Of a stretch of 64,000 nt of DNA, positions 18,976-62,558 are shown piece after piece. The translations under genes were made by a program, and so were the position numbers. The notes beneath the pieces are model-generated. The model was not told the origin of the DNA. It did no database searches and was given only the letters and a program-made list of their open reading frames with translations. This DNA comes from Nemertoderma westbladi (lineage: Eukaryota > Animalia > Xenacoelomorpha). Numbering within the stretch: the first letter of the stretch is position 1; each line of letters starts with the position of its first letter. The stretch lies in NCBI GenBank assembly GCA_032718475.1, contig JAUCBJ010005572.1:1-64000 (forward strand), written 5' to 3'.

Positions 18976-19025
18976 TTATTTATTTTTTTATACTGAGTCA
19001 TTAACAAAAAAGGTGAAGGTTCAAG

Positions 19026-24900: not shown

Positions 24901-24991
24901 GCAGTGCTATACGCAGTCGTTGCCTTTCAAAACGCGTCATCATAGGATAGAACAATATTTTAACTGGATAAATAAAGTTAGGGTGACTTGA
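21947..24991 (+). pseudogene. LINE ORF2: AP endonuclease plus reverse transcriptase, disrupted
   Basis: MAERIRIGTLNCHG, IQEHWL, SYIDHIL, FSDHVP (APE); KGKSPD, SYRPI, QMDISGAF, GVKQGSLLSPLLF (RT). The catalytic ADD motif is missing at a frameshift near 24105; several stops. Confidence 0.88.
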
Positions 24992-31680: not shown

Positions 31681-32299
31681 CTCCCCCCCATGCTATCTTC
31701 CCGGTAAGAAGATAGCATCCAACTAAAGTGCGCTACAATTCCGCTGGAACTCGATCTATTATCGGGTGTGGGGTGGGGTTATTTTCTTGGAGTCGGCTTT
31801 CCAGGCCGCTCCCTATGGGTATGATGTCACTACCCTCTGGCGTCTCGTGTCGGGCCGATCGTGCGCTTCCCTCACACAATTTTTGTTTCCCCAACACTCT
31901 CGCCACTCTAACTTCGCTCTCTAACTCAACTCGCTCTCTCCCCACTCTTACAACTCTCCCCACACCTGAATCGCACTCTAACTTCTCGCCAACAGCTCTT
32001 CTCACTATCTCCTCTCTACTCTCTGCCACTCCCTAAGGCCCTAATCTCTAATGCTACCCCTGTGCTATCATACTATCTACCTTATCTAAGGTCTAACTTG
32101 CTAACTATCTAACTTCTCTAACTCTAACTAACTCCTAACTCTACTAACTCTACTCTACTCTCTGCTAACTCTTACTACTTCTAGCTCTAACTAAAAGCCT
32201 CTAACTTTCTACTAACTCTAACTAGAACTCTCTAACTTTCTGCTAAGTCTACTAACTCTTTTCTAACTCTGACTAAAATCCTCCAACTAACTCTATCTC

Positions 32300-33200
32300 T
32301 ATCTACGTGGCGCTAACGGTGCCCACAACCACAACCGGTACTACGTACCCTCTTACTAACTCTATCTCCATCTACGTGGCGCTAACGGTGCCCACAACCA
32401 CAACCGGTACTACGTACCCTCTTACTAACTCTACCTCCATCTACGTGGCGCTAACGGTGCCCACAACCACTCTACTACTGCTTCTACTCTGCTACTATCT
32501 TTCTAACTCTACTAACTCTCTACTATCTCTAACTCTACTAGCTGGCACCCTATGTGCCCGTCTCTACCACTCTACTCTATCTACATCTCCACCTCCACTA
32601 ATACCTCTATCTACGTGGCGCTTGCGGTGCCCATAACCACTCCCTGCTACTACTTTCTACGTGGCGCTTCCGGTGCCCACAACCCCTCTTACTACTTTCT
32701 ACGTGGCGCTAACGATGCCCACAACCACTCTCTTGCTACTTTCTACGTGGCGCTTCCGGTGCCCACAACCCCCCTACTACTCGTGGCATGACAATATGCC
32801 ACACTCCCTTACCCCGCCGCCTTCTAACCTACTCTCCTTCTACGTGGCGCTTACGGTGCCCACAACCCCCCTACTACTACTCGTGGCATGACAATATGCC
32901 ACACTCCCTTACCCCGCCGCCTTCTAACTTCTCTACTACTACCTAACTTCTAACTGCTACTTCTTACTATCCTCTACTAATTATTATTTAATTATTTTAA
33001 TTATTTGTTTTTAATTAAATAATTATTTTCTTGTGGGAAGGGCGTCTCGCCCTCATTCCCACCCCCCTCAGTCCAAAATATTGGACGACTAAACCTCTTA
33101 ACTAGGGCGATTCTTCCAACAGGCACTCTCCCACTGCTGCTCTTGTAGGTCCTGTAGGATTCGCCGCTACTCGTGGCATGACAATATGCCACACTCCCTT
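32300..33200 (-). repeat. 3' non-coding tandem stem-loop repeats of copy A
   Basis: About 8 copies of CTACGTGGCGCT.{2}CGGTGCCCACAACC; 3 copies of GTGGCATGACAATATGCCAC; a 136-bp duplication (33032-33167 of 33318-33453). Confidence 0.85.
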
Positions 33201-33383
33201 GCCCCGCCGCCTTCTAACTCTACTCTCCTATCTTCGAACTACTTCTTACTTCTACTAACTATTATTTTAATTATTTAATTATTCATTAATATTTATTTAA
33301 ATTAAATAATTAATTTGTGTGGGAAGGGCGTCTCGCCCTCATTCCCACCCCCCTCAGTCCAAAATATTGGACGACTAAACCTC

Positions 33384-35768
33384 CTAACTAGGGCGATTCT
33401 TCCAACAGGCACTCTCCCACTGCTGCTCTTGTAGGTCCTGTAGGATTCGCCGCACTCTCTTCGCCAATTCCATCTCACCAGGAATTGGTTCTCCCTCTTT
33501 CACCACCCTAAGGTTGGGTCTCTCCACCGTCTTCTTAACTAGCTCATCTCCTGGCATCAAAATGCCACCTCCCTCCTTGCTGTCTCCCGCCGGCAGAATG
33601 AATAGAAAGTGAAAGAACAGGCAGAACAGAAGGTAGCATAATAGTCCTATCCCTTTCCATCCTGCCTTCCTTCTCGACTTCCCCCTTGTCGGTATGCCTC
33701 CAACCCGGACCTGCGTCTCTTCCGGACACTCCTCTGGACACTCCTCTAGACACTCCTTCCGACACTCCTCCGGGCACTCCCCCGGAGTGTTGTCCTTCGG
33801 ACACCTCGCCGTCCGCTCCGCTCCATCTCCATACCGATGCTTGCTGGGAAACCTACTCTCCTCTGCCCACTTTCTTACTGTCACCTCCCTATCTGGCTCT
33901 ACTATCTCTTGTTTCTCCTCTACTTCCTCTGCGCCTGCGGTGCCTGGTAACATGCACCCTGATGTCTCTGTCACACTGCATGGGATCTTAGTTTTAACTG
34001 GGCCGCTAAGCATCCACCCGAACGGCGTGAGGATCGCCGTCGGATCCCGCTGCCTGTCTTCGCCGAAGACCGTCTTCGTTCTCTCGTGGGCCGTCGGGCA
34101 GTCCATCCCTACTATAATGGACACCTTCCTAACGTCCACCGTTGGTATTGAGAAATCGATACCGTCCAGGAATCTATATTGCTCGACCTCAATGTTGGTT
34201 GGTCGCCTGGCGTTGATGTTTATCGATTCTATGACGTGGATGGGGTCGATCGTCGCCCCATAGCCGCATCCCGGTGCAATCGCTGCTATCCTGCACCGCC
34301 CCGTCCTCGTCTCCAGGACCTCATCTTTACTCGAGACGGTAGTTACCGCCATTCTGTTCGGCCTCGTCTTTAGCCCTATCTCTTCGGCCACCCAGTTCTC
34401 CACCAGCGTGAAGGCTGCTCCGCTGTCGACCAGCATTAACGTCGTTACTGATCGACCGCCCTCTCCTGATATCTTTACTGGTACTACCCCGAGTAGTACT
34501 TTTCTCTTCTTCTCCTCTTCTGTCGTGCTTGTGGCCATTGCCTGGCCTCCAGTCTCGGACTCTCTAACTGCTGTTTCTTTACACTCTCCGGGTCTGTGTC
34601 CTTCTAACACACATCGATGACATAGTCCGTTTGCGTCTGTGTAGGCTACACGATCTTGTTTGGGCAACGCTTGCCAGTGCTTACAACTCCTGGTCTTATG
34701 TGTTCCGTCCCGATGTAATTGACATTCGAATCCTGGATTATAGCGTTCCCTGTATAGTCCCTCACGTATCGCGCCTAGGTTTATATGTACCGATTTAGTG
34801 TTTTGGTTGTCTGTATTCGGCCTACTGGGTACATTGGGATTATGTTTATTTATGGTGTTATTTTCTTTCTGTCCCTGCCACGGTGTGGCCCTACTACCAG
34901 CTAACTGTGGACTAGCAGTCCCCTGTGTGGCCGCATGTGGTAGTGATTGTCCTACTCTCGGGAATGGATCTGCAGGATCGTGTTCGGGTTTATGGCTTGT
35001 CCCCAAACTATCCTCGCTATAGACTGGGTCTGTTATTAGTTCGGCTTCATAGTTGAGGAAGCTCGACATCTCTTCTAAGCCCGGTTCCGCACCCTTCTTC
35101 TCCCGTGTGGAGAAGGCTATCTTCCTCCACTTCCTTCGTAACCAGATCGGCAGTGCCTGCGCTATCGTGGTGATGTTGTTAGACGCGTTGAGTTCGTATG
35201 GTGCGTCTAGCGTCTTTAACACGATTAACGCCTTCTCGACCTTGTTTGCAAAGGTCCTTATGCTAACGGGATTGTCCTGTAGGCCATCCGATGTTATGCC
35301 TCTCAGGGTTTGCCGGATGATCTTGGCCGGGTGCCCGTATTCCCTATCTAGCGCCCGCCATGCTGTTGTGAAGCCGCCCTCGATGCCCTGGTATTGCCTC
35401 ACGATGTCGTATGCTGGGCCTCCTGTATATACTTGCAGATATTTTAGGCACTCCGCCTGCATCAAGTTCTTACTTAATATTTCGTTACTATACATGCGCC
35501 GAAACTGTAGATATTCTTCCGGCCTACTCCCATCGAATTTAAATGGTTCCACAGGTGGTAACTCGATCCTAGTTTTTAATGCATCGATTAATGTGGCCAT
35601 TCCCATCGCTTGCGCTTCTAATGGGTTCGATGGATGTTGTATAGTTTCTCTTGTTGGGTACGGTCCGTTCGTCCTATCTGTTGTTGATTTAATTTGTTGC
35701 GTCGGATATATCATTGGGGGTAACGGCCCCCTCCATATTTCCGTGTCGCACGATCTGTTCTCGTCCAA
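33384..35768 (-). CDS. Bel/Pao-type Gag, Zn knuckles, aspartic protease, Cys/Glu repeat and C-terminal TM segment (794 aa; probably the 3' part of a longer polyprotein)
   Basis: PFKFDGS..EY..F (DUF1759-like Gag); CQLH...H....C; CHRC...GH....C; LVDSGA; TPFGWML; ECPEECRKECLEECPEECPEE; hydrophobic GIGLLCYLLFCLFFHFLFILP. Confidence 0.85.
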   Translation of the reverse strand: MDENRSCDTEIWRGPLPPMIYPTQQIKSTTDRTNGPYPTRETIQHPSNPLEAQAMGMATLIDALKTRIELPPVEPFKFDGSRPEEYLQFRRMYSNEILSKNLMQAECLKYLQVYTGGPAYDIVRQYQGIEGGFTTAWRALDREYGHPAKIIRQTLRGITSDGLQDNPVSIRTFANKVEKALIVLKTLDAPYELNASNNITTIAQALPIWLRRKWRKIAFSTREKKGAEPGLEEMSSFLNYEAELITDPVYSEDSLGTSHKPEHDPADPFPRVGQSLPHAATQGTASPQLAGSRATPWQGQKENNTINKHNPNVPSRPNTDNQNTKSVHINLGAIREGLYRERYNPGFECQLHRDGTHKTRSCKHWQALPKQDRVAYTDANGLCHRCVLEGHRPGECKETAVRESETGGQAMATSTTEEEKKRKVLLGVVPVKISGEGGRSVTTLMLVDSGAAFTLVENWVAEEIGLKTRPNRMAVTTVSSKDEVLETRTGRCRIAAIAPGCGYGATIDPIHVIESININARRPTNIEVEQYRFLDGIDFSIPTVDVRKVSIIVGMDCPTAHERTKTVFGEDRQRDPTAILTPFGWMLSGPVKTKIPCSVTETSGCMLPGTAGAEEVEEKQEIVEPDREVTVRKWAEESRFPSKHRYGDGAERTARCPKDNTPGECPEECRKECLEECPEECPEETQVRVGGIPTRGKSRRKAGWKGIGLLCYLLFCLFFHFLFILPAGDSKEGGGILMPGDELVKKTVERPNLRVVKEGEPIPGEMELAKRVRRILQDLQEQQWESACWKNRPS

Positions 35769-35826
35769 GGGGTTCGATGTTCTCGCTCCTATTGGGGTAT
35801 ATTGTTGATATTGTGATGGGGGAATG

Positions 35827-36777
35827 TCACCCTGTCCCCCCCCCCACCGGTATGTTTGGTACTGGGGTTGATGTTAATATATTGGGGCCCATACATCTAT
35901 CTACAATGACTCTCCCCTCCCCTGGATATATGTTATGTCCCTGGAAATTATAGTCATGCTGCTGTACCGGTACCGATATAGGCCTATTCACTTCTTGCCT
36001 ACCTACCGGTATGTACTCCGCGACTTCCGGGTTTAATCCCGTCGTCCGCGCTACCCTATCGCCTACTCTATCTCTCCCAGCATGGCCTATAATAGTATGT
36101 GCAGTAAGGCCTACAGTATGTCCTGCAGTCTGCATGTGCCCTTCCGAATCGAAGTTTATTCTTCGCGAATCTCGAATCTCCCCGCGACTACCGTACTCTC
36201 GATCGGCAGCTATATCCCGTCGGGAAGCTTCTCTTCGATCCCCATTCCTGTTCTCTTCTTCGTATCGGTACATCCTGTACCCCTCTCTTGGCGTGCGGTG
36301 CGTTTCTCCGGGGCGACGGCAATCTCCCGAAGTTCGACCCCACTGACTCCCTAACTCCATCTCTACTATCGACGGCTCGCTATCCGTCCTCGCTCTCCTA
36401 TCGTTCGTGGCGACACTTCTTCTACTATCTTCTCTTCTTCTCTTTTCGACCTCTCGGTTAAACTCTACTAATCTTCTTCTATCTTCAACCCCTCTATTAA
36501 ACTCTACTAATCTTCTCTCTTCTGACTGGGCTCGACGTTCCGTCGCCCGCCCTTTCGCGACGTCAACCTGTCTCTCTCTGCTCGATCGCACGCCGCTGGG
36601 GATACTCGCAATCCCCCTATTACTCTCCGTCGCCGGGTATTGCGGTTTACCTGATTCGGCCCGCGCATTATCCGCTGACGGCTGTGGGACACTCTCTGCC
36701 CCCCCTCTCTCTCTACTAATCCCTCGCGGCGGGGTGCCCGTAGCCCCCCCCCCCCCACCCGCTACTTCTAACTTCAC
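35827..36777 (-). CDS. Arg/Glu-rich disordered segment of the copy A polyprotein
   Basis: 316-aa ORF homologous to 57512-58336 of copy B; ends at a G10 run out of frame with the Gag ORF. Confidence 0.55.
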   Translation of the reverse strand: MKLEVAGGGGGATGTPPRGISRERGGAESVPQPSADNARAESGKPQYPATESNRGIASIPSGVRSSRERQVDVAKGRATERRAQSEERRLVEFNRGVEDRRRLVEFNREVEKRRREDSRRSVATNDRRARTDSEPSIVEMELGSQWGRTSGDCRRPGETHRTPREGYRMYRYEEENRNGDRREASRRDIAADREYGSRGEIRDSRRINFDSEGHMQTAGHTVGLTAHTIIGHAGRDRVGDRVARTTGLNPEVAEYIPVGRQEVNRPISVPVQQHDYNFQGHNIYPGEGRVIVDRCMGPNILTSTPVPNIPVGGGTG

Positions 36778-36911
36778 TATCTCTTACTACACTTCTGCGT
36801 CCCTCTTGTCGGACACTCTCTACCCCCTTTCTCTCGCCACTAATCTTCTGTGGTGGGGCGCCCGTAGCCCCCCCCCCCCCCACCAGCCACTTCTAACTTC
36901 ACTACCTCTTA

Positions 36912-38579
36912 CTACACTTCTACACCCCTCTTGTGGGGCATTCTCTGCCCCCCCTCTCTCGCCGCTAATCTCATGTGGTGGGGCGCCCGTAGCCCCCCCC
37001 CCCCCCACTCGCCACATCTAACTTCACTATCTCTTACTTCGTCTCTACACCCCTCTCTAGTCGACACACTGTCTCTACTGCGGCCGGGTCTATTCACCCC
37101 CGCCTCTCTCTCTACTACTGCGTGGCCTACCAGGCCCACCTCGGGTTGGCTCAACCGCGCCACTTCCTGCCTACTAACTACGTGGCCTACCAGGCCGCCG
37201 TCTGCCGGGCTATACACGTCTGACGCGTTCACATTAATAGCACCATTCCCAATATTATTTGTTAAATCAATTAAATTATTAGAATTTGAAACGGAATTAT
37301 TTAAATTATTTAAGTTAGAATTATTATTATTTTCAAAATTTAAATTGCTATTCGAATTATTTGAATTATTTTGATTATTCTGAATATTTGAATTAATATT
37401 ATTATTTGAATTTAAACTTAAATTACTACTACCGGGTAAGATATTTCCTGTAATAAAGGGATTAGGGTTATTTACTACGGTACTATTAATACCAATATTT
37501 CCTAACGCACTACTACTACCCCCCCCCCCCCCGCCCGTACGGTTACTGTACATACTGTAAGTGTACCGCACGCTCTGTTCTCTTGCCTCACGCTCTTCGC
37601 GTTCACTCTCTCGCTCCTTCCTTCCCCTCAGTCGCCACTCTAATTCTTCCATTTTTAATTTATATGCCATGCGTTCACTCTCTCGCACCCGTCTTTCTTT
37701 TGCGGAGGATGTAGCAGACTTATAGGTTGCGACGGACTCCCGCCGCCCCTCCGTCCTACTAACTTTCCCCCGCTCTCCGGGGTTCTCGCTGACCAACGAG
37801 ACCGAATCCTCGGAGCTAACCTCGGATTCGCCCTCGTGCGGTCCCGCCCAACCCACTAACTCAACTTCCCTGGCATCGACTAAGTATGGCCCTATGTACA
37901 CTACACCAGGCCCCATACCCCTACGTTCCCATAGCCCAAACAGTTCGAAGGCAACCCCTCTCGCTCTCTCCTCGGCCAGTTCTCCCTGCCCAGAACGCAC
38001 TAGGTAATCAAAGTATCTGTTCGACTCACCTAGTCGTCTCCTCAACTTCACCTGGTCTATCTCAACCCCTCCTCTAGCTTCCTTCAGTTGTTCCCGGGTC
38101 GCGGCGTAGGCTCGTCGAAGTCGATCAGAAACCCCGACATCCTCGTCGCCGACCTCCCTTCCATCTCTCCGGGTCCGACGTCGTACCGGCAGCCCCACCG
38201 TTGCCGTTCTGGTGGGCCGTCCGTCGCCCTCGGCCTGTGGCTGGCCGGCGACATCGGTACGTCGACCCTCGCTCCGTGTCGACTCGTCTTTCTCCTCTCC
38301 CGTCTCACTCTCTCCTCTACTCGACTCGCTCTCTCCTCGTAGACGACCCCCCACATCTTGGTTCGCCGGGTTGCTCGTTATCGACGTGGCGTCAACCGGC
38401 GTCGACGTGGTCGACGTAGCATCGACCGGCGTCGTGGGTTCGTATCGTATCGCCGTGGCCTCGCGGATCGTTAGATCGTCGTCCGGGGTCCGCGGCGGTG
38501 TCGTTCCTCTCTCTCGACTCATCTTCGTCTTTAGTGATTGGTGGCTGGTGGTTATTGAGTTTATCCAGGGCAGCAGCAC
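36912..38579 (-). CDS. N-terminal segment of the copy A polyprotein (charged coil, Asn-rich tract, GLVGH repeats)
   Basis: 555-aa ORF, likely starting at MSRERG; homologous to the fragmented 55242-57414 region of copy B. Confidence 0.6.
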   Translation of the reverse strand: MLLPWINSITTSHQSLKTKMSRERGTTPPRTPDDDLTIREATAIRYEPTTPVDATSTTSTPVDATSITSNPANQDVGGRLRGESESSRGESETGEEKDESTRSEGRRTDVAGQPQAEGDGRPTRTATVGLPVRRRTRRDGREVGDEDVGVSDRLRRAYAATREQLKEARGGVEIDQVKLRRRLGESNRYFDYLVRSGQGELAEERARGVAFELFGLWERRGMGPGVVYIGPYLVDAREVELVGWAGPHEGESEVSSEDSVSLVSENPGERGKVSRTEGRRESVATYKSATSSAKERRVRESERMAYKLKMEELEWRLRGRKERESEREEREAREQSVRYTYSMYSNRTGGGGGGSSSALGNIGINSTVVNNPNPFITGNILPGSSNLSLNSNNNINSNIQNNQNNSNNSNSNLNFENNNNSNLNNLNNSVSNSNNLIDLTNNIGNGAINVNASDVYSPADGGLVGHVVSRQEVARLSQPEVGLVGHAVVEREAGVNRPGRSRDSVSTREGCRDEVRDSEVRCGEWGGGGLRAPHHMRLAAREGGQRMPHKRGVEV

Positions 38580-38678
38580 GGATTTAGTTACTGCCGAAGG
38601 GTTTAGTTACTAGCTAGGGCAGCAGTTGGTTTTAGTTACTGTTACAGTTTAACTAGGGCGGCAGCTCGATTTAGTTAC

Positions 38679-39212
38679 TGTGACGGGATCCAGGAGGGAT
38701 CCCGATTTATCCGATGTTTAGTTCACGCGTCCCCGCCGTGTGTAAAGAGTAAAATGAGTTCTGATGTTCGGTGTATATAATGATCAGTCTAATAAGATAT
38801 AGATATAGGTTGTTGTACACGGAAGGCGGGATACGGTAACTAAAGTCCCGGTCCTTCCCTAGCTAAACTATCTAACCTAACTAGCACCAATATGATACTG
38901 GGATAACTGACTGGTATGATTACTGGTAACTGGTTATATTGCACGGTGGCCTTATTGCTGTACCTAATCGATGCCTTTCCCCCCCTCTGATTGGTTGATA
39001 CCCTTGTTGGCGCCCTTTGGAGTGTTTCCCTTCACTCCCTGTGTTCTCTCTCGGTTAGGGGTTTGGCCCCTGACCTCCATTGTGTGTTTCTCCTTCCCTT
39101 CCCACTTTATTGGGGTAACACGAGGTTGATATTGGTAATCAACCTCGTGCTCCCAATATTGCTTAATGGCTCACTCTATGGGTTTGTGTTAGCGGAATTG
39201 GATAAGCTAACA
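38679..39212 (-). repeat. 5' LTR of copy A
   Basis: Direct repeat of 31147-31680; the sense strand has TATAA followed about 30 nt later by an Inr-like TCAGTT. Confidence 0.95.
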
Positions 39213-40724: not shown

Positions 40725-41610
40725 CTATGTTCTACGCATTTCCTTAGATCATCATAATGATGATGGGGTGATGATAACTCCACCTACTGACTCCAGCTGA
40801 CGACTTAGGAGTATTCTCAGAATCACTAGAGGGAGCCCAACGGCTCCTCAGCTCATTAGAACAGGCTGCTTCTAGCGTTGGTCTTTTTATTAACTCCAGA
40901 AAGATCAAAATTTTGACAGTTAACTTTGAAAGTTCTCAGCAAGTCTTTGATCGGATGAGCATAAGCTCAAAAGATGGTATGCTTGAGCATGTGGACTACT
41001 TCTGTTACCTGGGATTATGGATCCGGAAGTCAGGTGAGGGCCTTCGAATACGTAAGGGAAAGGCATGGGCAGCCTTCAATAGGCTTTGCAGGATTTGGAA
41101 GTCACCGAGAATTAATCGGAAACTTAAGGTCCGATTATTTAGAGCAGCAGTAGTTCCAGTACTCCTCTATGGGAGTCCATGCTGGGCTCTAACTGCTGAG
41201 GACACCAAATCTCTGGATGGCACATTCACAAGAATGCTACGCCGGGTTCATTGTGTCAAGTACAATGCACACATCTCCAACCAGACACTATATAACATTG
41301 GAGGTGTCTCATTGGTTCCCCCAAGCTTGACACTAGAGCAAAATCGCCTCCGGTTTGCAGGACATTGCTTTCGCCGTGAGGACCAGCCAGTGCATAATCT
41401 TGTACTTTGGCAGCCTCATGGAGTGAAAAAGCATGGTGGACAGCCCATGACTTTCTTGAGACGCATCTTAAAGGACACTGGCCTAGAAGATGCGGATGAT
41501 CTAGCAAATGTCATGGGTGATAGGGAGTTGTGGCGGTGCAATTTTGTTGACAAGCCGGCACAGCATTCTTAAAAATGCAGTTGCAATGCAGCATGCCGAT
41601 CCTAGTAGTA
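40725..41610 (+). mobile_element. 5'-truncated RTE LINE
   Basis: ORF 40913-41572 is near-identical to 18259-18756; ends in a CTAGTAGTA tail. Confidence 0.9.
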
Positions 41611-42112
41611 TGTTGCTGGGTCTGCCGACACTGTGTATGGCTGACCATGAGATCTGAGGGCGCTATGTTGCTGGGTCTGCCGACACTGTGTATGGTTGAC
41701 CATGAGATCTGATGGCGCTATGTAGCCGGGTCTGTCGAAACTGTGTATGGTTGACCATCAGATCTGAGGGCGCTATGTTGCTGGGTCTGCTGACACTGTG
41801 TATGGTTGACCATGAGATCTGAGGGCGCTATGTTGCTGGGTCTGCCGACACTGTGTATGGTTGACCATGAGATCTGATGGCGCTATGTAGCTGGGTCTGT
41901 CGAAACTGTGTATGGTTGACCATGAGATCTGATGGCGCTATGTAGCTGGGTCTGTCGAAACTGTGTATGGTTGACCATGAGATCTGAGGGCGCTATGTTG
42001 CTGGGTCTGTCGAAACTGTGTATGGTTGACCATGAGATCTGAGGGCGCTATGTTGCTGGGTCTGCCGACACTGTGTATGGTTGACCATGAGATCTGATGG
42101 CGCTATGTAGCC
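41610..42112 (-). repeat. 55-bp satellite, about 9 copies (reverse complement of the 4165-4749 array)
   Basis: Unit TATGTTGCTGGGTCTGCCGACACTGTGTATGGTTGACCATGAGATCTGAGGGCGC. Confidence 0.95.
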
Positions 42113-42115
42113 GGT

Positions 42116-42399
42116 ACAAAATCGCCTCCGCTTTGCAGGACATTGCTTTCGCCGTGAGGACCAGCCAGTGCATAATCGTGTACTTTGGCAGCCTCATGGA
42201 GTGAATAAGCAAGCATGGTGGACAGACCATGACTTTCTTGAGACACATCTTAAAGGACATTGGTCTTGAAGATGCGGATGATCTAGCAAATGTCATGGGT
42301 GATAGGGAGTTGTGGCGGCGCAATTTTGTCGACAAGCCGGCACAGCATTCTTAAAAATGCAGCTGCAATGCAGCATGCCGATAGTAGTAGTAGTAGTAG
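42116..42399 (+). mobile_element. RTE 3' fragment with (TAG)6 tail
   Basis: Matches the 3' ~285 nt of the other RTE copies. Confidence 0.9.
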
Positions 42400-49005: not shown

Positions 49006-50337
49006 TTACATGAAGTAAATATTCCACCCCCTTATTTTAGCTATTAACATATGAATTAACAGAGTTAATATTAGTGGCAAACCAAACATACTGAATATAC
49101 AGCATGCCATTGGGAAACCAAAGTAGTCAGTTAGTAAGCCACCGAGTATGGGTCCTAAAATATTGCCGAGCGAAATGGTTATCTTCAATCCAGTCTGTAG
49201 GAGAGTCCTGGTGTCTACGTTGTCATGACATCCCCCGGGTCCTAGTGCGATTCGAGTCTGCAACTCCAGACCAGGGTGGCGGGTTATCCCTGTAGTTATG
49301 CCCAATAGTGCGCAACCTAAAATCGATGAAGCGAAACCAGACGACCCATCTTCGTTATTGGTAGGTCCAATAAGTTGCATGGTAACGGGAGTCAATAAGT
49401 AACCCAAAACAGTTGGATATGTTGGGTTAATTTGCGGGTATTTCTGCATCAAGTGAGCGGATAAGAGTCCGAGAGAGGAAGAAACCAATGGATAAATCGC
49501 GAAAATACCTCCGATCTCGTTCTGGTTTTTATGGAAAACTCGGTGTAAATGCAAGGCGTAATTCGCTGTGACCATCATGATGCATCCTTTATGGTAGGCT
49601 TGGATGAGAGCTAATATAGAAATACTGAAGTTTTTGTATAGACTCCAGTAAGAGGGTCTGTTTCCAATGGACTCGGGCCTATCAGTAAGAATCGCTGGAG
49701 ACTCCACATAAGAGTAGAGGCAAATTATGGTAAACAGAGCTCCAGGTACGACAAATGTTGCGAGGAATCCGATATTAGCGTACGCCAAGGCGCCAAAGGT
49801 GGGACCAGAGGCAGACCCTATTATTGATGCGATAACAGCCAGACCGGAGAAGAAAGTCCTATGTCTTGGAAACACATCCATTAGTAGACTGTAACCATAG
49901 TTGCAACTAATATTGAGACCTATTGCTTCGAAGATCCTGAGTGCGAAACACACAATAATATACACGATGTTGTTGGAGATATACTCTACGAACCCGAAGC
50001 AAAGAAGGGAGATTGCGCCAAATGTTCCAAAGACGGCGAGAGATACACGAGTTCCTAAGGAGTTAATTGTGAGAATAAAGAAGGAATTGATAATGATTCT
50101 CACCACAGAGAATGACGTAAATAGTGATCCGATTAGAGTGTTTGACCAGCCGCGTGGTTGAACCACCAAAGGAAAGAATGATTCTAGCAGAGTTACGCAC
50201 CAACCCGGCACGATCTGCAAGGCTGTCAACATCACCCCTAATATGATCATTCGTTTTGAGTAGGTTTGATTAGGCTGGGGACCGGTGGGTGTCTGTATGT
50301 CAGGGTTATCTTCTGGATGGCCCAGGGTCTCTGCCAT
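49006..50337 (-). CDS. MFS transporter, SLC18B1-like (443 aa, uninterrupted ORF)
   Basis: About 12 hydrophobic segments; LRIFEAIG, GSASGPTFGALAY..GF and SLGNILGPILGGLLTDYFGF motifs resemble the SLC18 vesicular amine/polyamine transporter group. Confidence 0.85.
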   Translation of the reverse strand: MAETLGHPEDNPDIQTPTGPQPNQTYSKRMIILGVMLTALQIVPGWCVTLLESFFPLVVQPRGWSNTLIGSLFTSFSVVRIIINSFFILTINSLGTRVSLAVFGTFGAISLLCFGFVEYISNNIVYIIVCFALRIFEAIGLNISCNYGYSLLMDVFPRHRTFFSGLAVIASIIGSASGPTFGALAYANIGFLATFVVPGALFTIICLYSYVESPAILTDRPESIGNRPSYWSLYKNFSISILALIQAYHKGCIMMVTANYALHLHRVFHKNQNEIGGIFAIYPLVSSSLGLLSAHLMQKYPQINPTYPTVLGYLLTPVTMQLIGPTNNEDGSSGFASSILGCALLGITTGITRHPGLELQTRIALGPGGCHDNVDTRTLLQTGLKITISLGNILGPILGGLLTDYFGFPMACCIFSMFGLPLILTLLIHMLIAKIRGWNIYFM

Positions 50338-52860
50338 GGTTTGATAAGTCTTTATCTAACAATAGAAGCCAACGGGCGAGAATTCTAGTTGGTGATATTA
50401 AATGGTACTACAAATAAAATACAAATGTCACGCACGGTTAGAATGGGAAAGCAAGCGCGGCAAGCTACTGTATGTTAGCTAAATGGAGCGATCTATATTG
50501 ATACAACATAAAAAAAACACATTTACAGCTCGTGGTGGCCATCAATTGCGTCTCAATATTACAATCACGCTTCATGCAATGAACGTGATACAGTTTTGAA
50601 ATAAGTTGTTTCATTTTTATTTAAATTTCGAATTTGAACCTAATAAACAATCATCTCCAGCAGATATTTCTTCGTGTGACCGAAACGAAAATTGTCATAA
50701 ATTTTCGCATAAAGTTTAATAAAATGGTGTCGAAAGCAACATTTTGAAATTTCGATGTAGCTACAGTAGTATAGCGCATATCGGCGTTAGCGCCCAACGT
50801 CTGTTGGGCTGTTGTGAAACTACCAGAACAAGATAAAACTGTACTGCACCAAAATAAGAGTACGAGGAAGCTACACTACAGAATAACAGTCTGTTCTTGT
50901 AGAAACACCCATGACTCTTCCCCTGCCTTGAATGGGGCCAGCCCTTTTAAAGACCACACCATCTGATTTATCTATATTTGCTTGCAGATAACTCAACTAC
51001 ACTGCTATGCTGTAAATATTAAACTAAATCCATTCACACATTCATATTCATACAGTACAATGACAGTCATAAATACATTCAATTTGTGAAAAAAGTAAGT
51101 ATAATACTGTAGCCCAGAAATGGCTGTGTGTAATTAAACCGTTTTCTGATTAAAACGTTTTTTTCATAATAACAATAACATAAAGTTTATTGAAAAACCC
51201 CTAATTTCTAAGTGAACTAAAATTGTAAAACTATATTTAAATTGTTTCTAGGTTAACCAACTGCCTTAATTTTTTAAATAAATGATGGGAAAAGAATGCA
51301 AAATCCCAAAAACAATACAATAATTAACTACATAATCGAGTGTTGGGGCTATTACTAATATAGTGATATTATGGATAAATAGATATCTATTTAATGGTAA
51401 TTCTGATCTTTAGTGTGAATGGAAAAGTTATGGCAGTGCCAATATTTCGGCCACAACATGTGATAACACGTAAGGTACTGTACTGTAAGTACAATACATA
51501 CAGTAGTTAATAGTTATAGTGTTGAATGTCAGAATTTAGAACACAACAGTAGCCTACCGTTAAATGTTTAAGGTTATACGTAGCCAGATGCATCCCGACT
51601 CGCCCTGTTAAAGGCCTGTTATTTGTGTAATAATTAATTTTTTTAATAATTTTTAATAATTTTTTTTCAATAATTATATTACATGACTTCGTCAAAATAG
51701 TAACACTGAAAAAATATTTTTGATGACAATAAATATCCGACCTGCATATTTCCATTATGTGTACCCCGCCCGGTGATCTTGGCCCACAGCTATAATTGCA
51801 GATGAACTATAACTACACGTAAATCAACTATTGAATTGAATATGTAAAACATTGATTCATAATAGCTTACAACACTGCATCTAAAGTATTTGATAATTAT
51901 TGTAAATTATATGTAATAAATTCTCCATTTTTTTTCCTTGAATAACGTGGAATGAACAGGAAACAGAGTACCAGATGTTGGCAATGAAATGATCGTAAAA
52001 CTTATCATCATTTCTATTATCGAAACATTTGGCAGAAACATCGCGATTGCTATAAACATACTGTATTAGCATTGACTTACTGACTGACTGGATCTACAGT
52101 CAAACAGGCTAACCGTATTCTACGGTCCCTGGGATGATCGGCTTCTCCGCCCATAGGCTGGACTCGAAAAATAGACATAAACGAAAAAGCGTAATAGGCG
52201 CAATGATAAAAACACCAGCTGGCACTCATAAAAATGGATAGAGATGGCCTAGTAATGATATTCTATAGGAATGGCTGTTACGGGAGCGATCCCTGATGCA
52301 CTTCGGCACAGTGCATTGTAACTAACCTACAAGGTTTCGATGTCCTGACATTAGGCCGCCTCCAATATACAGTACACCATGTCCCAGAATATAGTGTCGT
52401 ATTTCAATGACCCTCCCCCCCCCCCCCCCCCCCCAATTTTTCTACAAATCTTAATGAGATTGCATGCAATTTGAAACAGAGATAGTTTCACCTCCCGACC
52501 ACTAACTGGGTGAGCCAGAATTTTTGTTTTTGCTTTCAATCTTTAGCTACAAGTGTTTAAGAAACACTATACTATTTCTTGTTGTCTCTTTTACTTGAAA
52601 TAAAAAGTCGGTTCCTTTTCGGGCCGCTAGGCCCGTCACGACTATTTCCCTCTAATGCGTTCCAAATTTCTGACCTCCTAAAACCTGATAAAAATAGTTG
52701 TTATTAAAATGGACTAAAATTAACTGGATCTGGACAGCAATAATATCCGGGCACCTAGAGACGAGCTTTTTGTGTAAATTCATCGAGAAGTTTTACCTCT
52801 AGCCTTCCTAATTTATTATTGGTGTTTTGGGGAATGAGTAGTTTTCATATTAATATAACA

Positions 52861-54621: not shown

Positions 54622-55214
54622 TGTGAGCGGATTCAATTCCGCATCACCAACCCCCATACAGTTGGAAAGGGCGCCTTTAAGCAATATTGGGAAGTACGAG
54701 GTTGATTACCAATCAACCTCGTATCACCCCCAATAACGGGCACAATACACAGCCCCAAAGAGCCACACAATAGAGGTTAGAGGTCAAGCTACCTCGAGGA
54801 GAGAGAGTAACAGCAGCGGGGGGAAGCACTCCCACAGAGGTGAAGGCGAGAAGTAGGTTATCAACCAATGGGGGGACAGGAAAGGCATCCGCTGAGTAGT
54901 AGGGCCAAGGTAATGTAGGGTGATTAGATATATATTACCGGTCAATGTTTGTGCCATTTAGTTTACTCAGTAGTTTACTCAGTCACTTAGGGTAGTACGG
55001 TGACACTTTAAGACCGTCACCGCCGTCACCAATCAGTTACCATATCATTACCGGTCAACTGTGCTATCTCAGTATCTGTTATCACCTATATTATATATAT
55101 ATTACCGTTCAAGTTTATTAACAACACTGGAACAACAGACTCTCTTTTTCCATCACACAGTGCGGCTGACGCGTACATAAACCAAACTGGTCGGGATCCT
55201 CTGATCCCATCACA
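54622..55214 (+). repeat. 5' LTR of copy B
   Basis: TG..CA ends; carries 65 bp absent from the 3' LTR, plus roughly 9 substitutions. Confidence 0.93.
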
Positions 55215-55241
55215 GTCTTAAAGTCTAAGAACTGCCAAATT

Positions 55242-58200
55242 GTGACTGCCAGCCACCAGAGAAGAACAGAGTTAAGAGATGAGTTAAGAAGGAGAGACGA
55301 CACCGTCGCGGACCCCGGACGACGACCTAACGATCCGCGAGGCCGCAACGCGATGGTATCAACCCACGATGCCGGGTTCGTCGACAATAGACGATCCGGC
55401 AATCCAAGCGGAGGGGGCCGTCTACAAAGAGGAACGATCGAGTCGAGAAAAGGGAGAGACAAGTCGACGCACGACGGCGGTCGAGGTACCGATGTCGCCG
55501 GCCAACCACAGGCCGAGGGTGACGGACGGCCCACCAGAACGGCGATGGTGGGGCCGCCGGTTTGACGCCGAACATGGAGAGAAAGAGGGGATGTCGGCAA
55601 CGAGGACGTCGGAGTCAGCGACTGGCTCCGACGGGCCTACAATGCGATGAGGAAACAGATGAAGGAAGCTAAGGAGGGGCAAAACTGGACCAGGTGAAAC
55701 TAGATCAGCGACTAGGTGAGTCGAACAAACATTTTAACTATCTAGTTCGATTTGGGCAAGGAAAGTTGGCGGGTGAAAGAGCGAGAGAGACTGCCACTGA
55801 ACTGTTCGAACTGTGGCAATCTAGGGGTGTAGTGTACATAGGGCCATACTTAGTGGATGCCAGGGGAATTAAGTTAGTGGGTTGGGCGGGACCGCGGGAG
55901 GGCAAATCCGAGGTTAACCCCAAGGATTCGGTCTCGTCGGTCGGTGAAAACCTCAGAAAGCGGGGGAAAGTTAGTAGGACGAGGAGGCGACGGGAGTCCG
56001 TCACGACCGACAAGTCTGCTACATCCTCCGCAAAAGTAAGAAGGGTGCTAGAAATAGATCTGGCGTGCCAGTTGGATATCGTGGTGCTAGACCAAAAGGA
56101 GTTAGAGAGGCAGTTGGAGGAGGGAGCTGCGTTGCTAGAGAGAGAGAGAGAGAGAGTTGGCGAGGGAGTGTAAAGAGAGAGCTGATAGGGTAGCCAGGAA
56201 CTGTAGGGAGAAAGAAGAGAGGGAGAAAGAGAAGCGCGAGGAGCGAGAAGGGAGGGAGAAAGAGGAGCGCGAGAGGGAGAAAGAGGAGCGCAAGAGGGAG
56301 AAAGAGGAGCACAAGAGGGAGAAAGAGGAGCGAGAAGGGAGGGAGAAAGAGGAGCGCGAGAGGGAGAAAGAGGAGCGCAAAGAACAAGAAGTGAGAGAGG
56401 CAGCAAGGGTGGAGAGAGAAACAAATGAACATAGAGAGCGGGTTGCGAGAGAGGCAGAGTTGGCCGAGCAAAGTTTACGAGAGGATAGAGAGAGGGAGAG
56501 AGAGGGGAAGCGTATGCGGGATGATATGCATACCCGGCTAAGAGGGCTTATGCAGTATCAGGCCAAGCAGAAGCGCCGACTAGAACTGGCGCAGTTGGGG
56601 CTATCAGAGAGTGAGGCTGGCTCGGGTAGTATTTACGAGGAGCCAGAGGTAGTGAAAACGTTTGTTAATACCCCACTTACAGGCACCGAGAGAACCAGAA
56701 CTGGTGTAGCCGTACGGGCGGGGGGGGGGGGGGGGGGGTAATAATAATACGTTAGGAGATATTAATATTAATAGTACTGTAGTAGATAACCCTAATCAAA
56801 CTTTTATTACAGGAAATAGTATTTTACCCGGTGATTTAAATACAAATAATCCAAATAATAATTTAAACCCAAATATCCAAAATAATCCAAATAATAATAT
56901 TAATTTAAATATAGAAAATAATAATTCTAATTCAAATATTCCAAATAATTCGATTAATAATTTAAATTTAGAAAATAATAATAATTCTAATTTAAATAAT
57001 TTAAATAATAATATTGATAACGGCTCTATTAATACTAATGTAGACACAGGTAGTCCAGCCAACGAGGGCCTGCAAGGCCACGCAGTTAGTGCGCAGGGAG
57101 TAGCGGGGGTGAGAGACCCCGAACGGGGCCTGGTAGGCCACGTAGTTAGTAGGCAGGGAGTAGCGGGGGTGAGTCAACCCGACGGGGGCCTGTCAGGCCA
57201 CGCAGTTGCACAGGGAGAGGCGGGGGTGAGTAGACCCAGCCGCAGTAGAGACAGTGCGTCGACTAGAGAGGGGTGTAGAAGTGAAGTAAGAGATAGTGAA
57301 GTTAGAAGTGGCGAGTGGCGAGTGGGGGGGGCTACGGGCGCCCCACCACGGAAGATTAGTGGCGAGAGAGGGGGGCAGAGAATGCCCCGCAAGGGGGGCG
57401 TAGAAGTGAAGTAAGAGATAGTGAAGTAAGAAGTGGCGGGTGTGGGGGGGCTACGGGCGCCCCACCACGAGAGATTAGTAGCAAGAAGGGGGGGCAGAGA
57501 ATATCCCACAGGTGTCGGCGGATAATGCGTGGGGCAAGTTAGGTGAACTGCGGCAGCCGACGACGGAGAATAGTAGGGGGATGGCGAGTATCCCCAGGAG
57601 GGTCCAGCCGGACAGAGTAGAGACAGATGTTAGCACCGAGAGTGGGCGAGCGAGAAGATGTCAGTCGGAAGAGAGAAGAAGATTAGTAGAGTTTAACCGG
57701 GAGGTCGAAGAGAGAAGAAGTGAAGAGAATAATAGAAGAGTCGTTGCTAGGAGCAACCGGAGAGCAAGGACGGATAGAGAGCCGTCGATATTAGAGATGG
57801 AGTTAGGGAGTCAGTGGGGTCGAACTCTGGGAGATTGCCGTCGCCCCGGAGAAACGCACCGCACGCCAAGAGAGGGGTACAGGATGTACCGATATGAAGA
57901 CGGAAACAGGAGAGGGGATCGAAGAGAAACTTCCCGACGGGATATAGCTGCCGATCGAGAGTACGGTAGTCGCGGGGAGATTCGAGATTTGAGAAGATTA
58001 AACTTCGGTTCGGAAGGGCACATGCAGACTGCAGGACATACTGTAGGCCTTACTGCACATACTATTATAGGCCATACTGGGAGAGATAGTGTAGGCGATA
58101 GGGTAGCGCGAACGATGGGATTAAACCCGGAAGTCACGGAGTACATGCCGGTAGGTAGGCAAGAAGTGGATAGGCCTATATCGGTACCAGCACAGCAGCA

Positions 58201-58595
58201 TGACTATAATATCCAGGGACATAACATATATCCAGGGGAGGGGAGAGTTATTGCAAATAGATGTATGGGCCCCAATATATTAACATCAACCCCAGTACCA
58301 AACATACCGGTGGGGGGGGGGGGGGGGACAGGGTGACATTCCTCCATTACAACATCAACAATATACTCGAACAGCAACGAGAACATCGAACCCCCTGGAC
58401 GAGAACAGGTCGTGCGACATGGAGATATGGAGGGGGCCGTTACCCCCAATGATATATCCAACTCAAACAAAATCAACAGACAGGACGGGCGGACCGCACC
58501 CAACAGGAGAATCTGTACAGCGTCCTTCGAACCCATTGGAAGCACAGGCAATGGGAATGGCGACACTAATCGATGCATTAAAGACCAGGATCTAG
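55242..58595 (+). pseudogene. Fragmented N-terminal polyprotein of copy B (Glu/Arg coil, Asn-rich tract, Arg-rich region)
   Basis: ORFs 55694-56173, 56157-56741, about 56737-57414 and 57512-58336 are homologous to copy A; nonsense TAG at 58593-58595 (KTRI*LPP vs KTRIELPP). Confidence 0.7.
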
Positions 58596-58661
58596 TTACC
58601 ACCAGTCGAGCCATTTAAATTTGACGGAAGTAGGCCGGAAGAATACCTGCAATTTCGGCGC

Positions 58662-60785
58662 ATGTATAGCAACGAGATATTAAGTAATAACTTGACGCAG
58701 GCGGAGTGCCTAAAATATCTACAGGTATATACAGGAGGCCCAGCGTATGACATCATGAGGCAGTATCAGGGCATCGAGGGCGGCTTCACGACTGCATGGC
58801 GGGCGCTAGACAGGGAATACGGACACCCAGCCAAGATCATCCAGCAGACCCTGAGGGGTATAACATCAGGTGGCCTACAAGACAACCCTGTTAGCATAAA
58901 GACCTTTGCGAACAAGGTCGAGAAGGCGTTAATCGTACTGAAGACATTAGACGCGCCATACGAACTCAACGCATCTAATAACATCACCACGATAGCGCAG
59001 GCACTGTCGATCTGGCTGCGGAGCAAGTGGAGGAAGATCGCCTTCTCCACCCGGGAGAAGAAAGGTGCGGAGCCAGGGCTAGAGGAAATGTCAAACTTCC
59101 TCAACTACGAAGCCAAGTTGATTACAGACCCAGTCTATAGTGAGGATAGTTTTGGGAAGGCGCCAAAGATCGAATACAACAGGCCTAAACCCAAACACAA
59201 TCCTGCAGATCCATTCCCGAGAGTAAGACAGTCACTACCACACGCAGCCACACAGGGGGCTACGAGCCCACAGTTAGCTGGGAGTAGGGCCACACCGTGG
59301 CAGGGACAGAAAGAAAATAACACCACAAATAAACATAATCCCAACATACCCAGTAGGCCGAGTCTAGATAACCAAAACACTAAATCGGTAGATATAAACC
59401 TACGCGCGATACGTGAGGGACTATACAGGGAACGCTACAATCCAGGATTCAAATGTCAATTACATCAGGATGGAACCCATAAGACCATGAGTTGTAAGCA
59501 CTGGCAAGCGTTGCCCAAACAAGATCGTATAGCCTACACAGACGCAAACGGACTATGTCATCGATGTGTGGTAAAAGGACACAGATCCGGAGAGTGTAGA
59601 GAAACAGCAATAGGAGAGGATGAGACTGGAGGCCAAACCATGGCTACAAGCATGACAATAGCAAGAAAAAAGAGGAAAGTACTACTCGGGGTAGTACCAG
59701 TGAAGATAACAGGAAGGGGCGGTCGATCAGTAACGACATTAATGCTGGTCGACAGCGGAGCCGCCTTCACGCTGGTGGAGAACTGGGTGGCCGAAGAGAT
59801 AGGGCTAAAGACAAGGCCGAATAGAATGGCGGTAACTACCGTCTCAAGTAAGGATGAGGTCCTGGAGATGAGGACGGGGCAGTGCAAGATAGCAGCGATA
59901 GCACTGGGATGCGATTATGGGGCGACGATCGACCCCATCCACGTGATAGAATCGATAAATATCAACGCCAGGCGACCAACCAACATTGAGGTCGAACAAT
60001 ATAGATTCCTGGACAGTATCGATTTCTCAATACCAGAGGTGGACGTTAGGAAGGTATCCATTATAGTAGGAATGGACTGTCCGATGGCCCACGAGAGAAT
60101 GAAGACGGTCTTCGGCGAAGACAGACAGTGGGATCCGACAGTGATCCTCATGCCGTTCGGATGGACGCTTAGCGGCCCAGTTAATACCGAGATTCCATCC
60201 AGGGTGACGGAGACATCAAGGTGCATGTTACCAGGCACCGTAGACGTTGTGGACGAAGAGGAGAAACAGGAGACAGCAGATAAACCAGATGGGGAAGTAA
60301 AAGTAAGAGAGTGGGCGGAGGAGAATGGATTTCCCAGCAGGTATCGGTATGGGGATGGAGAGGAGCGGACGCCGAGATGTCCGGAGGACAACAGTCCGGA
60401 GGAGTGTCTGGGGGAGTGTTGGAAGGAGTGTCCAGAGGAGTGTCCAGAGGAGACGCCGGTCCGGTTGAGAGGCATACCGACAAGGGGGAGGTCGAGTAAG
60501 AAGACAGGATGGAAAGGGATAGGACTACTATTGTACGTTCTGTTTTGTCTGTTCTTTCACTTTCTTTTCATTCTGCCGCCAGGAGACAACAAGGTGGGAG
60601 GTGGCATTTTGATGCCAAGAGACGAGGAAGTTAAGAAGGCGGCGGAGAGACCCGATTTTAGGGTGGTAGAAGAGGGAGAACCAATTCCTGGTGAGTTGGA
60701 ATTGGCGAAGAGAGTGCAGCGAATCCTACAGGACCTACAAGGGGAGCAGTGGGAGAGTGCCAGTTGGAAGAATCGCCCTAGTTAG
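58662..60785 (+). CDS. Bel/Pao-type Gag, protease and TM tail of copy B (707 aa)
   Basis: Colinear with 33384-35768 down to an equivalent C-terminus (QWES..WKNRPS*). Confidence 0.82.
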   Translation: MYSNEILSNNLTQAECLKYLQVYTGGPAYDIMRQYQGIEGGFTTAWRALDREYGHPAKIIQQTLRGITSGGLQDNPVSIKTFANKVEKALIVLKTLDAPYELNASNNITTIAQALSIWLRSKWRKIAFSTREKKGAEPGLEEMSNFLNYEAKLITDPVYSEDSFGKAPKIEYNRPKPKHNPADPFPRVRQSLPHAATQGATSPQLAGSRATPWQGQKENNTTNKHNPNIPSRPSLDNQNTKSVDINLRAIREGLYRERYNPGFKCQLHQDGTHKTMSCKHWQALPKQDRIAYTDANGLCHRCVVKGHRSGECRETAIGEDETGGQTMATSMTIARKKRKVLLGVVPVKITGRGGRSVTTLMLVDSGAAFTLVENWVAEEIGLKTRPNRMAVTTVSSKDEVLEMRTGQCKIAAIALGCDYGATIDPIHVIESININARRPTNIEVEQYRFLDSIDFSIPEVDVRKVSIIVGMDCPMAHERMKTVFGEDRQWDPTVILMPFGWTLSGPVNTEIPSRVTETSRCMLPGTVDVVDEEEKQETADKPDGEVKVREWAEENGFPSRYRYGDGEERTPRCPEDNSPEECLGECWKECPEECPEETPVRLRGIPTRGRSSKKTGWKGIGLLLYVLFCLFFHFLFILPPGDNKVGGGILMPRDEEVKKAAERPDFRVVEEGEPIPGELELAKRVQRILQDLQGEQWESASWKNRPS

Positions 60786-62030
60786 GTGAAGTTGAGTCGT
60801 CCAATATTTTGGACTGAGGGGGGTGAAAATGAGGGCGAGACGCCCTTCCCACACAAATAAATAATTATTTAAATAAAAAAAAAAAAAATTAAGTAATCAA
60901 ATAATTAAATAAGAAGAAGGTAGAAAGTAATAGTTAAAAATAGTAAGAATAGTAAGTAGCAGAATAGTAATAGTAAGAAGTTAGTAGTCAGATAGTTAGT
61001 AGAAGCTAGATAGTAAGTAGAAAGTTAGAAGATAGTACGTAGTAGTTAGAAGATAGTAATTAAGTTACCGTTAGAAGTCGGCGGGTATAGGGAGTGTGGT
61101 ATATAGACATACCACGGGAGTAGGAGGGTACGTAGTACCGAGAGAGTTAGAAGTCGGCGGGTATAGGGAGTGTGGTATATAGACATACCACGGGAGTAGG
61201 AGGGTACGTAGTACTGAGAGGGTTAGAAGTCGGCGGGTATAAGGGAGTGTGGTATATTCACATGCCACGAGTAGTAGAGGGGTTGTGGGCACCGCAAGCG
61301 CCACGTAGACAGAGGTAGTAGCAGAGTTAGAAGTAGTAGTAGAGTGGTTGTGGGCACCGCAAGCGCCACGTAGATGGAGGTAGTAAGCAGAGTGGTTGTG
61401 GGCACCGCAAGCGCCACATAGATAGAGGTGGTAGCAGAGTTAGAGGTAGCAGTAGAATTAGGAGTTAGTAGAGTTAGAGTTAGTAGAGGTAGAGAGTTAG
61501 TAGAAGTAGAGAGTTAGAAAGCTAATAGAGTTAGAGTTAGAATCAGTAGAGTTAGAGTTAGTAGAGTAAGTAGCAAGTTCGACTTTAGATAAGGTAGATA
61601 GTATGATAGCACGGTATGATAGTATAAGAGATTAGGGCCTTAGAGAATAGAGGAGTATGAGAGAAGTCTGGAGATGAGACAGGATGCGAGAGAGAGTGCA
61701 GACAAGTGCGATTCAGGTGTGGGGAGAGAGTGAGAGTGTTAGAGTAGAGAGTAAGGTAGAGTGGAGAAGTGTTGGGGAAACAAAAATTGTGTGAGAGAAA
61801 CCCACAATTGGCCCGACACGGGACGCCAGATGTCTTGGTGCAAGATAGATGAAGTTGCACCAAGACAGGGTAGCGATATCATACCCATGGGTAGCGGCCT
61901 GGAAAGCCGGCTCCGAGGAAAAAATAACTCCACCCCACACCCAATAGTAGATCGGGTTTCCAGCGGAATTGAAGCGCGCTTAGAGGTTGATGCTATCTTC
62001 TCACCAGGAAGATAGCATGGGGGGGGGGAG

Positions 62031-62558
62031 TGTGAGCGGATTCAATTCCACCTCACCAACCCCCATACAGTTGGAAAGGGCGCCTTTAAGCAATATTGGG
62101 AAGTACGAGGTTGATTACCAATCAACCTCGTATCACCCCCAATAACGGGCACAATACACAGCCCCAAAGAGCCACACAATAGAGGTTAGAGGTCAAGCTA
62201 CCTCAAGGAGAGAGAGTAACAGCAGCGGGGGGGAAGCACTCCCACAGAGGTGAAGGCGAGAAGTAGGTTATCAACCAATGGGGGGACAGGAAAGGCATCC
62301 GCTGAGTAGTAGGGCCAAGGTAATGTAGGGTGATTAGATATATATTACCGGTCAATGTTTGTGCCATTCAGTTTAGTCAGTAGTTTACTCAGTCACTTAG
62401 GGTAGTATGGTGACACTTTAAGACCGTCACCGCCGTCACCAATCAGTTACCATATCATTACCGGTCAACCGTGCTATCTCAGACTCTCTTTTTCCATCAC
62501 ACGGTGCGGCTGACGCGTACATAAACCAAACTGGTCGGGATCCTCTGATCCCGTCACA
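62031..62558 (+). repeat. 3' LTR of copy B
   Basis: TG..CA ends; follows the PPT. Confidence 0.93.

Follow-up and report, generated by a model that had tools for sequence, protein, structure and literature searches.

Two retroelements in the genome of Nemertoderma westbladi raise the question of how reverse transcription is primed where the 5′ LTR is not followed by a tRNA-type primer-binding site (PBS). The window, that is, the whole stretch of DNA analysed, comprises 64,000 nt (GCA_032718475.1, contig JAUCBJ010005572.1, positions 1-64,000, forward strand), and comparing it with itself revealed two related LTR elements, termed here A and B. Element A lies at 31147-39212 on the minus strand between copies of the target duplication ATTTG, and its 534-bp 5′ LTR (38679-39212, TG..CA) is identical to its 3′ LTR (31147-31680). 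Element B lies at 54622-62558 on the plus strand with the target duplication AGAAA, a 593-bp 5′ LTR (54622-55214) and a 528-bp 3′ LTR (62031-62558); its LTRs share 97.6% identity across the first 460 nt and are separated by one 66-nt indel. All features of A given below are read on the minus strand and all those of B on the plus strand. Both elements have the LTRs, polypurine tract and target duplication expected of Bel/Pao, the duplication being 5 bp and the polypurine tract directly adjoining the 3′ LTR in each. The insertion of A is very recent, and its identical LTRs and target duplication indicate that its PBS worked recently. Three further hairpins are common to A and B, one where the LTR begins, one within U3 and one that overlaps the polypurine tract (39118-39212 and 31681-31720, minus; 54622-54724 and 61990-62030, plus); the U3 hairpin has 13-14 bp with changed outer pairs, the polypurine-tract hairpin has 12-13 bp, and the three may guide plus-strand priming.

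The long frame of A (33384-35873, minus) encodes a gag with DUF1759 and CCHC motifs followed by an aspartic protease (DSGA), and that of B (58596-60785, plus) likewise encodes gag and protease, the two proteins being 89% identical. In the long frames of A and B, DUF1759 was matched with E values of 1e-10 and 7.5e-10, together with an aspartyl protease match, so that Gag and protease are both of Bel/Pao type. The best database proteins shared 23-35% identity with A and B, and all ten of the long protein hits scanned were Pao polyproteins carrying Peptidase_A17 and DUF5641. The gag and protease domains and these hits bear out the Bel/Pao origin that had been proposed for both copies in an earlier note on this DNA. 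Because scanning five long frames from A and B gave no match to RT, RNase H or integrase, the two elements are classed, from their sequence, as non-autonomous Bel/Pao derivatives, and the lack of RT in these frames implies that a helper is needed. Of two word-based protein searches, one gave two distant hits and the other none, neither yielding a helper element, and a protein scan of viral contigs gave no relative of A or B. The ICTV profile of the Belpaoviridae describes an 18-nt PBS for tRNA-Arg or tRNA-Gly (PMC8742986). A and B resemble that family in the DUF1759 Gag, the protease, the TG..CA LTRs and the polypurine tract, and differ from it in having no 18-nt PBS for either tRNA and no detected RT, RNase H or integrase (PMC8742986). 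A tandem duplication of about 290 nt (32877-33457) directly follows the gag-protease frame of A. Elsewhere in the window, Gypsy-like pol frames encoding RT, RNase H and integrase occur at 8760-13054 (minus), separate from A and B; LINE-like pieces (endonuclease, RT) at 18944-24991 (plus) follow a frame with a weak SAP match; single-frame, apparently intronless genes at 28658-30139 (plus) and 49006-50355 (minus) encode a ligand-gated ion channel subunit and an MFS transporter; and two related 55-nt tandem arrays in opposite orientation, together with a long 19-nt array, are found at 4055-4824, 41499-42224 and from 43994 onward.

What follows the 5′ LTR in both copies is a short complement of the LTR itself. 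On rechecking, every coordinate in the earlier note proved correct. In B, the 10-mer at the PBS position (55215-55224) is the exact reverse complement of 55005-55014, which lies inside the hairpin CGGTGAC/GTCACCG (54998-55022); in A, the 9-mer at 38670-38678 is the exact reverse complement of 38836-38844, inside a CGGGA/TCCCG hairpin. Both candidate primers end in AC and are followed by CGT. As had been noted, the match starts at the first base past the terminal CA (offset 0) in both copies, and if begun one base earlier it shrinks to just 5 nt in A and in B. No TGG start of a tRNA-type PBS follows either 5′ LTR. No tRNA gene was found within the window. Dinucleotide-shuffled LTRs contained the word in 64 of 20,000 cases for A and 12 of 20,000 for B, and when offsets 0-3 were permitted, 5 of 500 (A) and 0 of 500 (B) shuffles did as well. 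Within the first 2 kb past the LTR, such a complement occurs in B at position 1 alone of 1,990 and in A at 6 of 1,991 positions, four of which are the PBS and its three leader repeats (38639, 38610 and 38591, minus). A PBS complementary to the element's own LTR and adjoining it, as in Tf1/sushi elements, is therefore present in both copies. In the leader of A (38591-38678, minus), the four occurrences of the PBS 9-mer lie in units that also repeat CCCT(A/G)G, and other family contigs skip parts of this region. Rfam gave no match over element B up to an E value of 1. A pattern scan for the LTR end gave no stretch in the metagenome contigs and one in the viral contigs, which reads as unrelated phage-like DNA and was set aside.

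The pairing is specific to each copy: primer and PBS pair at -7.3 and -10.4 kcal/mol within their own copy and at -0.2 and +0.4 kcal/mol when A is crossed with B, as phased in these two copies. Thus, that part of the earlier claim of a compensatory change which concerns differing letters without cross-pairing stands, whereas a base-by-base compensation is uncertain, since global alignment pairs the A loop with a second motif in B. By the same token, the position of the two loops in the LTR is equivalent only approximately, the A loop aligning with an A-like B motif at about 55031-55047. As the A loop is aligned to this second motif, the change of primer between the copies may be a shift to a neighbouring duplicated unit, the two primers not being strict orthologues.

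Where the primer lies in the RNA depends on the start of transcription. The A LTR contains a promoter-like module at 38908-38994 (minus), with CCAAT at 38994, ATATAA at 38939 and TCAGTT at 38910, which would place the start at 38908, and the B LTR contains one at 54865-54963 (plus), with CCAAT at 54865, TATATA at 54929 and TTAGTT at 54958, which would put the start at 54960, the 3′ LTR of B having TCAGTT where the 5′ LTR has TTAGTT. We take these words to be CCAAT, TATA-like and Inr-like elements, and the modules are identified by motif match only. The spacing between the TATA-like and Inr-like words is 29 nt in both copies, and neither A nor B has a TATA-like motif about 30 nt ahead of the primer. 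If the motifs are read correctly, the distance from transcription start to primer would be 64 nt in A and 45 nt in B, and the primer would hence be internal. The loop had earlier been put 55-73 nt past the start; counted from the Inr-like A, it begins 64 nt (A) and 45 nt (B) downstream, so that figure does not hold for the loop.

Folding from the putative start gave, in both copies, a nested architecture without a pseudoknot, as computed with a program that has no representation of pseudoknots. The predicted fold consists of the primer:PBS helix, a helix P2 that begins where the cut is predicted (AC|CGT), a U5 stem-loop, and pairing of upstream R with the leader. The bases directly after the primer read CGT..CCGCC in both copies and form P2 with a U5 segment ending in GACG. 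In A, the 5′ strand of P2 (38818-38835), which is also the 3′ arm of the local hairpin, is predicted to pair with 38728-38740, whose terminal GACG is common to B; in B, 55015-55024 pairs with 55160-55171. The U5 stem-loop is predicted at 38684-38704 in A, just before the terminal TCACA, and at 55192-55209 in B, so that both copies would have such a structure adjoining the PBS, as Tf1/sushi elements do. Lin and Levin reportedly found in 1998 that a U5 inverted-repeat stem-loop is required in Tf1. The first three P2 pairs in A have a probability of 0.94 at all six leader lengths. In B, P2 is better than shuffles (6 and 11 of 2,000 as good), and in A alone it is not significant (158 of 2,000). 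The P2 arms of one copy can also pair with those of the other, which makes P2 a conserved helix more than a clearly covarying one. Ahead of the primer, a stretch of about 50 nt in A finds an in-register partner in the leader (0 of 1,000 and 4 of 2,000 shuffles as good), with a core formed by 38645-38658 and 38857-38870 (minus). The outer pairing of B is limited to a pair of short helices and does not reach significance (235 of 1,000; 216 of 2,000). The folding z score of the 5′ domain is -4.2 in A and -2.8 in B. Between P2 and the U5 stem-loop there are poly(A)-like hexamers at 38722 (minus) and 55176 (plus); the stretch concerned in A can mimic the PBS by pairing with the primer segment.

The predicted states lie close together in energy. 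The primer:PBS helix is part of the minimum-energy fold of B with a short leader (probability 0.85), and in A it has a probability of 0.01 and lies 3.6 kcal/mol above the free fold, in which a PBS-like U5 stretch takes the place of the PBS as partner of the primer segment. Imposing primer:PBS pairing on the fold raises its energy by 3.6 kcal/mol in A and 0-3.7 in B; for the local hairpin the corresponding cost is 9.6 kcal/mol (A) and 0-2.4 kcal/mol (B). The 7-bp local hairpin of B (54998-55022), a competing conformer, wins with at least 80 leader bases (probability 0.83-0.92), and the hairpin of A has a probability of 0.00 at all leader lengths. The hairpin arms pair best within their own copy (-18.0 and -12.6 kcal/mol versus -6.4 and -7.4 across copies). 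On these models, the local hairpin may be a real alternative state, and the region is best seen as a switch between near-equal states. The earlier proposal had offered internal-loop self-priming or a loop-PBS pseudoknot: a self-primer within the transcript is probable, given the exact LTR complement at the PBS position and a putative start upstream of it, and the pseudoknot is not required, as the predicted fold is nested and the 3′ arm of the hairpin pairs with U5.

Further variation was available from public contigs, which, from three studies of one organism, contain many variant LTR pieces. When the contigs of that organism were compared with A at 38640-38885 (runs X2, X3 and X5), summed contig depth, which is not copy number, peaked at 38820-38864, 38721-38747 and 38676-38711, that is, over the primer with the 5′ strand of P2, over the 3′ strand of P2 and over the U5 stem-loop, all of them parts predicted to be paired. 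Between these peaks, depth was about 15- to 55-fold lower in X2 and X3, and some contigs skip 66 or 73 nt of the middle part. The 66 nt missing from the B 3′ LTR are likewise part of the region enclosed by P2. These islands of depth are a rough sign of conservation. The listed variants around the U5 stem-loop affect its loop or positions flanking the stem. A primer variant at 38840 makes up 15% of depth in X2, 17% in X3 and 0 in X5, and removes the AG that a spliced primer would need; no matching PBS change was found among the variants listed, and two X3 substitutions of the right kind stand outside that listing. One contig carries the same 9-mer followed by a different leader, where the tenth base would extend the unspliced pairing. 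The 66-nt LTR indel of B and the 66- and 73-nt contig skips were also considered as introns and rejected, as they lack GT-AG ends.

Self-complementary primer sites also occur in autonomous relatives, which supports self-priming. Aligning 20 long hits led to 78 metagenome loci, five of which form a strict set in which the 5′ LTR end, at CA, is fixed by the LTR pair (L020 was dropped because its repeat does not end in CA). Four of the five (L002, L003, L026 and L034) match a GT-AG junction within the LTR over 12, 15, 11 and 10 nt, with 8, 0, 5 and 2 of 500 shuffles as good, respectively, and their LTR introns measure 71-186 nt. In L026 and L034 the PBS starts with GT directly after CA, and in three of the four loci the primer ends in AC. 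The fifth, L005, carries a TGG-type site, as does L068. An open scan of 57 loci, the other 21 of the 78 having too little upstream DNA or no gag match, gave junction-type hits in 22 versus 20 of 114 shuffled controls, direct hits in 10 versus 8 of 114, and TGG-type sites in two; given this high background, the strict set alone was used as evidence. Open-scan junction matches include L006, L009, L011, L017, L022, L028, L032, L038, L041, L049, L055 and L059, and the junction-matching loci of both sets are autonomous Bel/Pao relatives. L002 has a TATA word 36 nt before the donor, which suggests a first exon of few bases. The four strict-set relatives thus have a self-complementary PBS too, but need an LTR intron removed, whereas A and B match best unspliced (9 versus 8 nt exact in A, 10 versus 5 nt in B). 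In a quick gag-protease tree with long branches (58 rows: 47 of the 78 loci, nine proteins, A and B), A and B (support 97) sit on a long branch, set with two TGG-type loci and not among the junction-matching ones; their nearest neighbour, L053, has no definable 5′ LTR end.

Tf1/sushi elements are among the closest known systems. The consulted parts of PMC7175516, PMC4600332 and PMC5341516 describe the Tf1 primer as the initial 11 bases of the RNA, freed by an RNase H cut. In Tf1 and Tf2 of S. pombe, Tj1 of S. japonicus and the Tf1/sushi group of Ty3/gypsy, as far as the sources consulted describe them, the PBS beside the 5′ LTR complements the element's own LTR RNA, as it does in A and B. By phylogeny, Tf1/sushi elements are Ty3/gypsy chromoviruses, whereas the A and B proteins are of Bel/Pao type, a different superfamily. 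Against the first 11 bases given for Tf1 in those parts, the primer of A and B would be 9-10 bases lying 45-64 nt into the RNA, and A and B further differ in the predicted pairing of a 5′ extension with the leader, in the competing hairpin and in being non-autonomous. By analogy, the feature would work like Tf1 self-priming outside the Tf1 group. Self-priming has also been predicted, in the portion of PMC6317226 consulted, for plant Tcn1 (gypsy) and TAR/Houba/Osr-1 (copia) elements on the basis of complementarity to the LTR over 10 bp or more, 0-5 bp past it, a rule under which the 9-nt match of A falls short. The Tcn1 and TAR lineages belong to other superfamilies and hosts than A and B. Titles and abstract openings yielded no report of Bel/Pao self-priming; subscription journals, Repbase and supplements lie outside their reach, and an earlier mention is possible. 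Term searches gave no mention of PBS, tRNA or priming in the searchable text of the Bel/Pao papers PMC554778, PMC3118150, PMC6238403 and PMC8556966, and the parts consulted of PMC3601003 and PMC8220671 say nothing on Bel/Pao self-priming.

Self-priming in some form is very probable for both A and B, and within it we lean, with limited confidence, towards an internal, unspliced primer presented by the nested junction fold and cut at AC|CGT. The splice-built primers of the relatives suggest another source, in which a candidate GT-AG intron of A (38840-38963, minus) is spliced out to leave a junction near the RNA 5′ end that serves as primer, B having lost the need to splice. The A junction, which also pairs with PBS and leader, does so at -22.9 kcal/mol versus -15.4 unspliced (13 of 500 shuffles as good), the A primer holds an acceptor-like site, TTTAG|TTAC, in the same register as in the relatives, and four of the five relatives with pair-defined ends match junctions over 10-15 nt. 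We nevertheless consider this unlikely for A and B, as the exact junction match is just 8 nt in A (49 of 500 shuffles) and 5 nt in B (495 of 500), the TATA/Inr-like module sits within the proposed intron and would be removed with it, two runs show variation of the acceptor G in 15-17% of depth, and the two bases ahead of the donor vary in 19-60%. Classical Tf1 geometry, with the start at or just before the primer, the primer as the first bases of the RNA and no upstream pairings at the 5′ end, is the sole geometry with experimental proof in the consulted part of PMC7175516, and the B 10-mer does start at a CA step. It seems distinctly improbable here, where neither primer has a TATA-like motif some 30 nt before it and the A leader matches about 50 nt upstream of the primer.

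The hairpin might instead stay closed while its loop, within a single RNA or between two packaged ones, pairs with the PBS as a pseudoknot or kissing complex that is cut there. That the arms pair best within each copy, that the leader pairing largely skips the hairpin 5′ arm, and that a long leader favours the hairpin in B would all fit; we give this low credence in view of the probability of 0.00 for the A hairpin at all lengths, the conserved island over the P2 partner, and the steric strain generally expected of a 10-bp helix made from an 11-nt closed loop. Some Ty1/copia lineages use half-tRNA primers, according to the part of PMC6317226 consulted, the PBS of such half-tRNA-primed elements (Osser, Bryco, Bianca type) being complementary to a tRNA half, and a host RNA such as a tRNA half could likewise prime A and B, the LTR match then being a structural switch or mimic that regulates access to the PBS. 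Two elements that are 89% identical in protein would, however, need two different host RNAs, each matching an LTR word ending at offset 0, and we regard this reading as of little probability. Chance is scarcely credible: the words are short and AT-rich and the LTRs are full of AGTT repeats, but only 64 and 12 of 20,000 shuffles held the word and both matches stand at offset 0. Priming from a natural RNA 3′ end was rejected, there being no poly(A)-like hexamer before the primer and the hexamers lying near the LTR end.

Under the preferred reading of an internal, unspliced self-primer, transcription would begin at the Inr-like site, as the motifs suggest, and the local hairpin is predicted to form first and then to be displaced. 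The primer would pair with the PBS and the bases following it with the U5 segment ending in GACG, forming P2, with the U5 stem-loop next to the PBS, while the 5′ extension would pair with the leader and clamp the short, AU-rich primer duplex. If Tf1 is a guide, a helper Bel/Pao RT would use its RNase H to cut between the primer helix and P2, at AC|CGT, predicted to lie about 55-73 bases from the putative start of the element's own unspliced RNA. From the new 3′ end, minus-strand synthesis would then start at the LTR's terminal A, and the 5′ part left uncopied would presumably be regained from the 3′ LTR.

A broader scheme can be put forward tentatively, and we consider it rather doubtful as a whole: much of Bel/Pao would not be tRNA-primed, many lineages would build the primer across an LTR splice junction, and the A/B family would have moved to an unspliced primer deep in R, which an RNA switch from hairpin to junction would release and a leader helix, perhaps copied from the primer's 5′ extension, would clamp, with copy A, which has spliced and unspliced matches, recording the transition. 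Bel/Pao elements are officially described as tRNA-primed, and experiments are known to have established self-priming only for fission-yeast Tf1-type elements, in which the primer is the first 11 bases. The proposal made here predicts exact cap and cut positions, with caps near 38908 (A) and 54960 (B) and uncapped 5′ ends at 38835 and 55015. If it is true, a primer that lies internally and is clamped by the leader, in a family both young and abundant and beside relatives with splice-built primers, would mean that a major animal superfamily makes widespread and flexible use of tRNA-free priming, and would explain elements in which annotation tools find no PBS.
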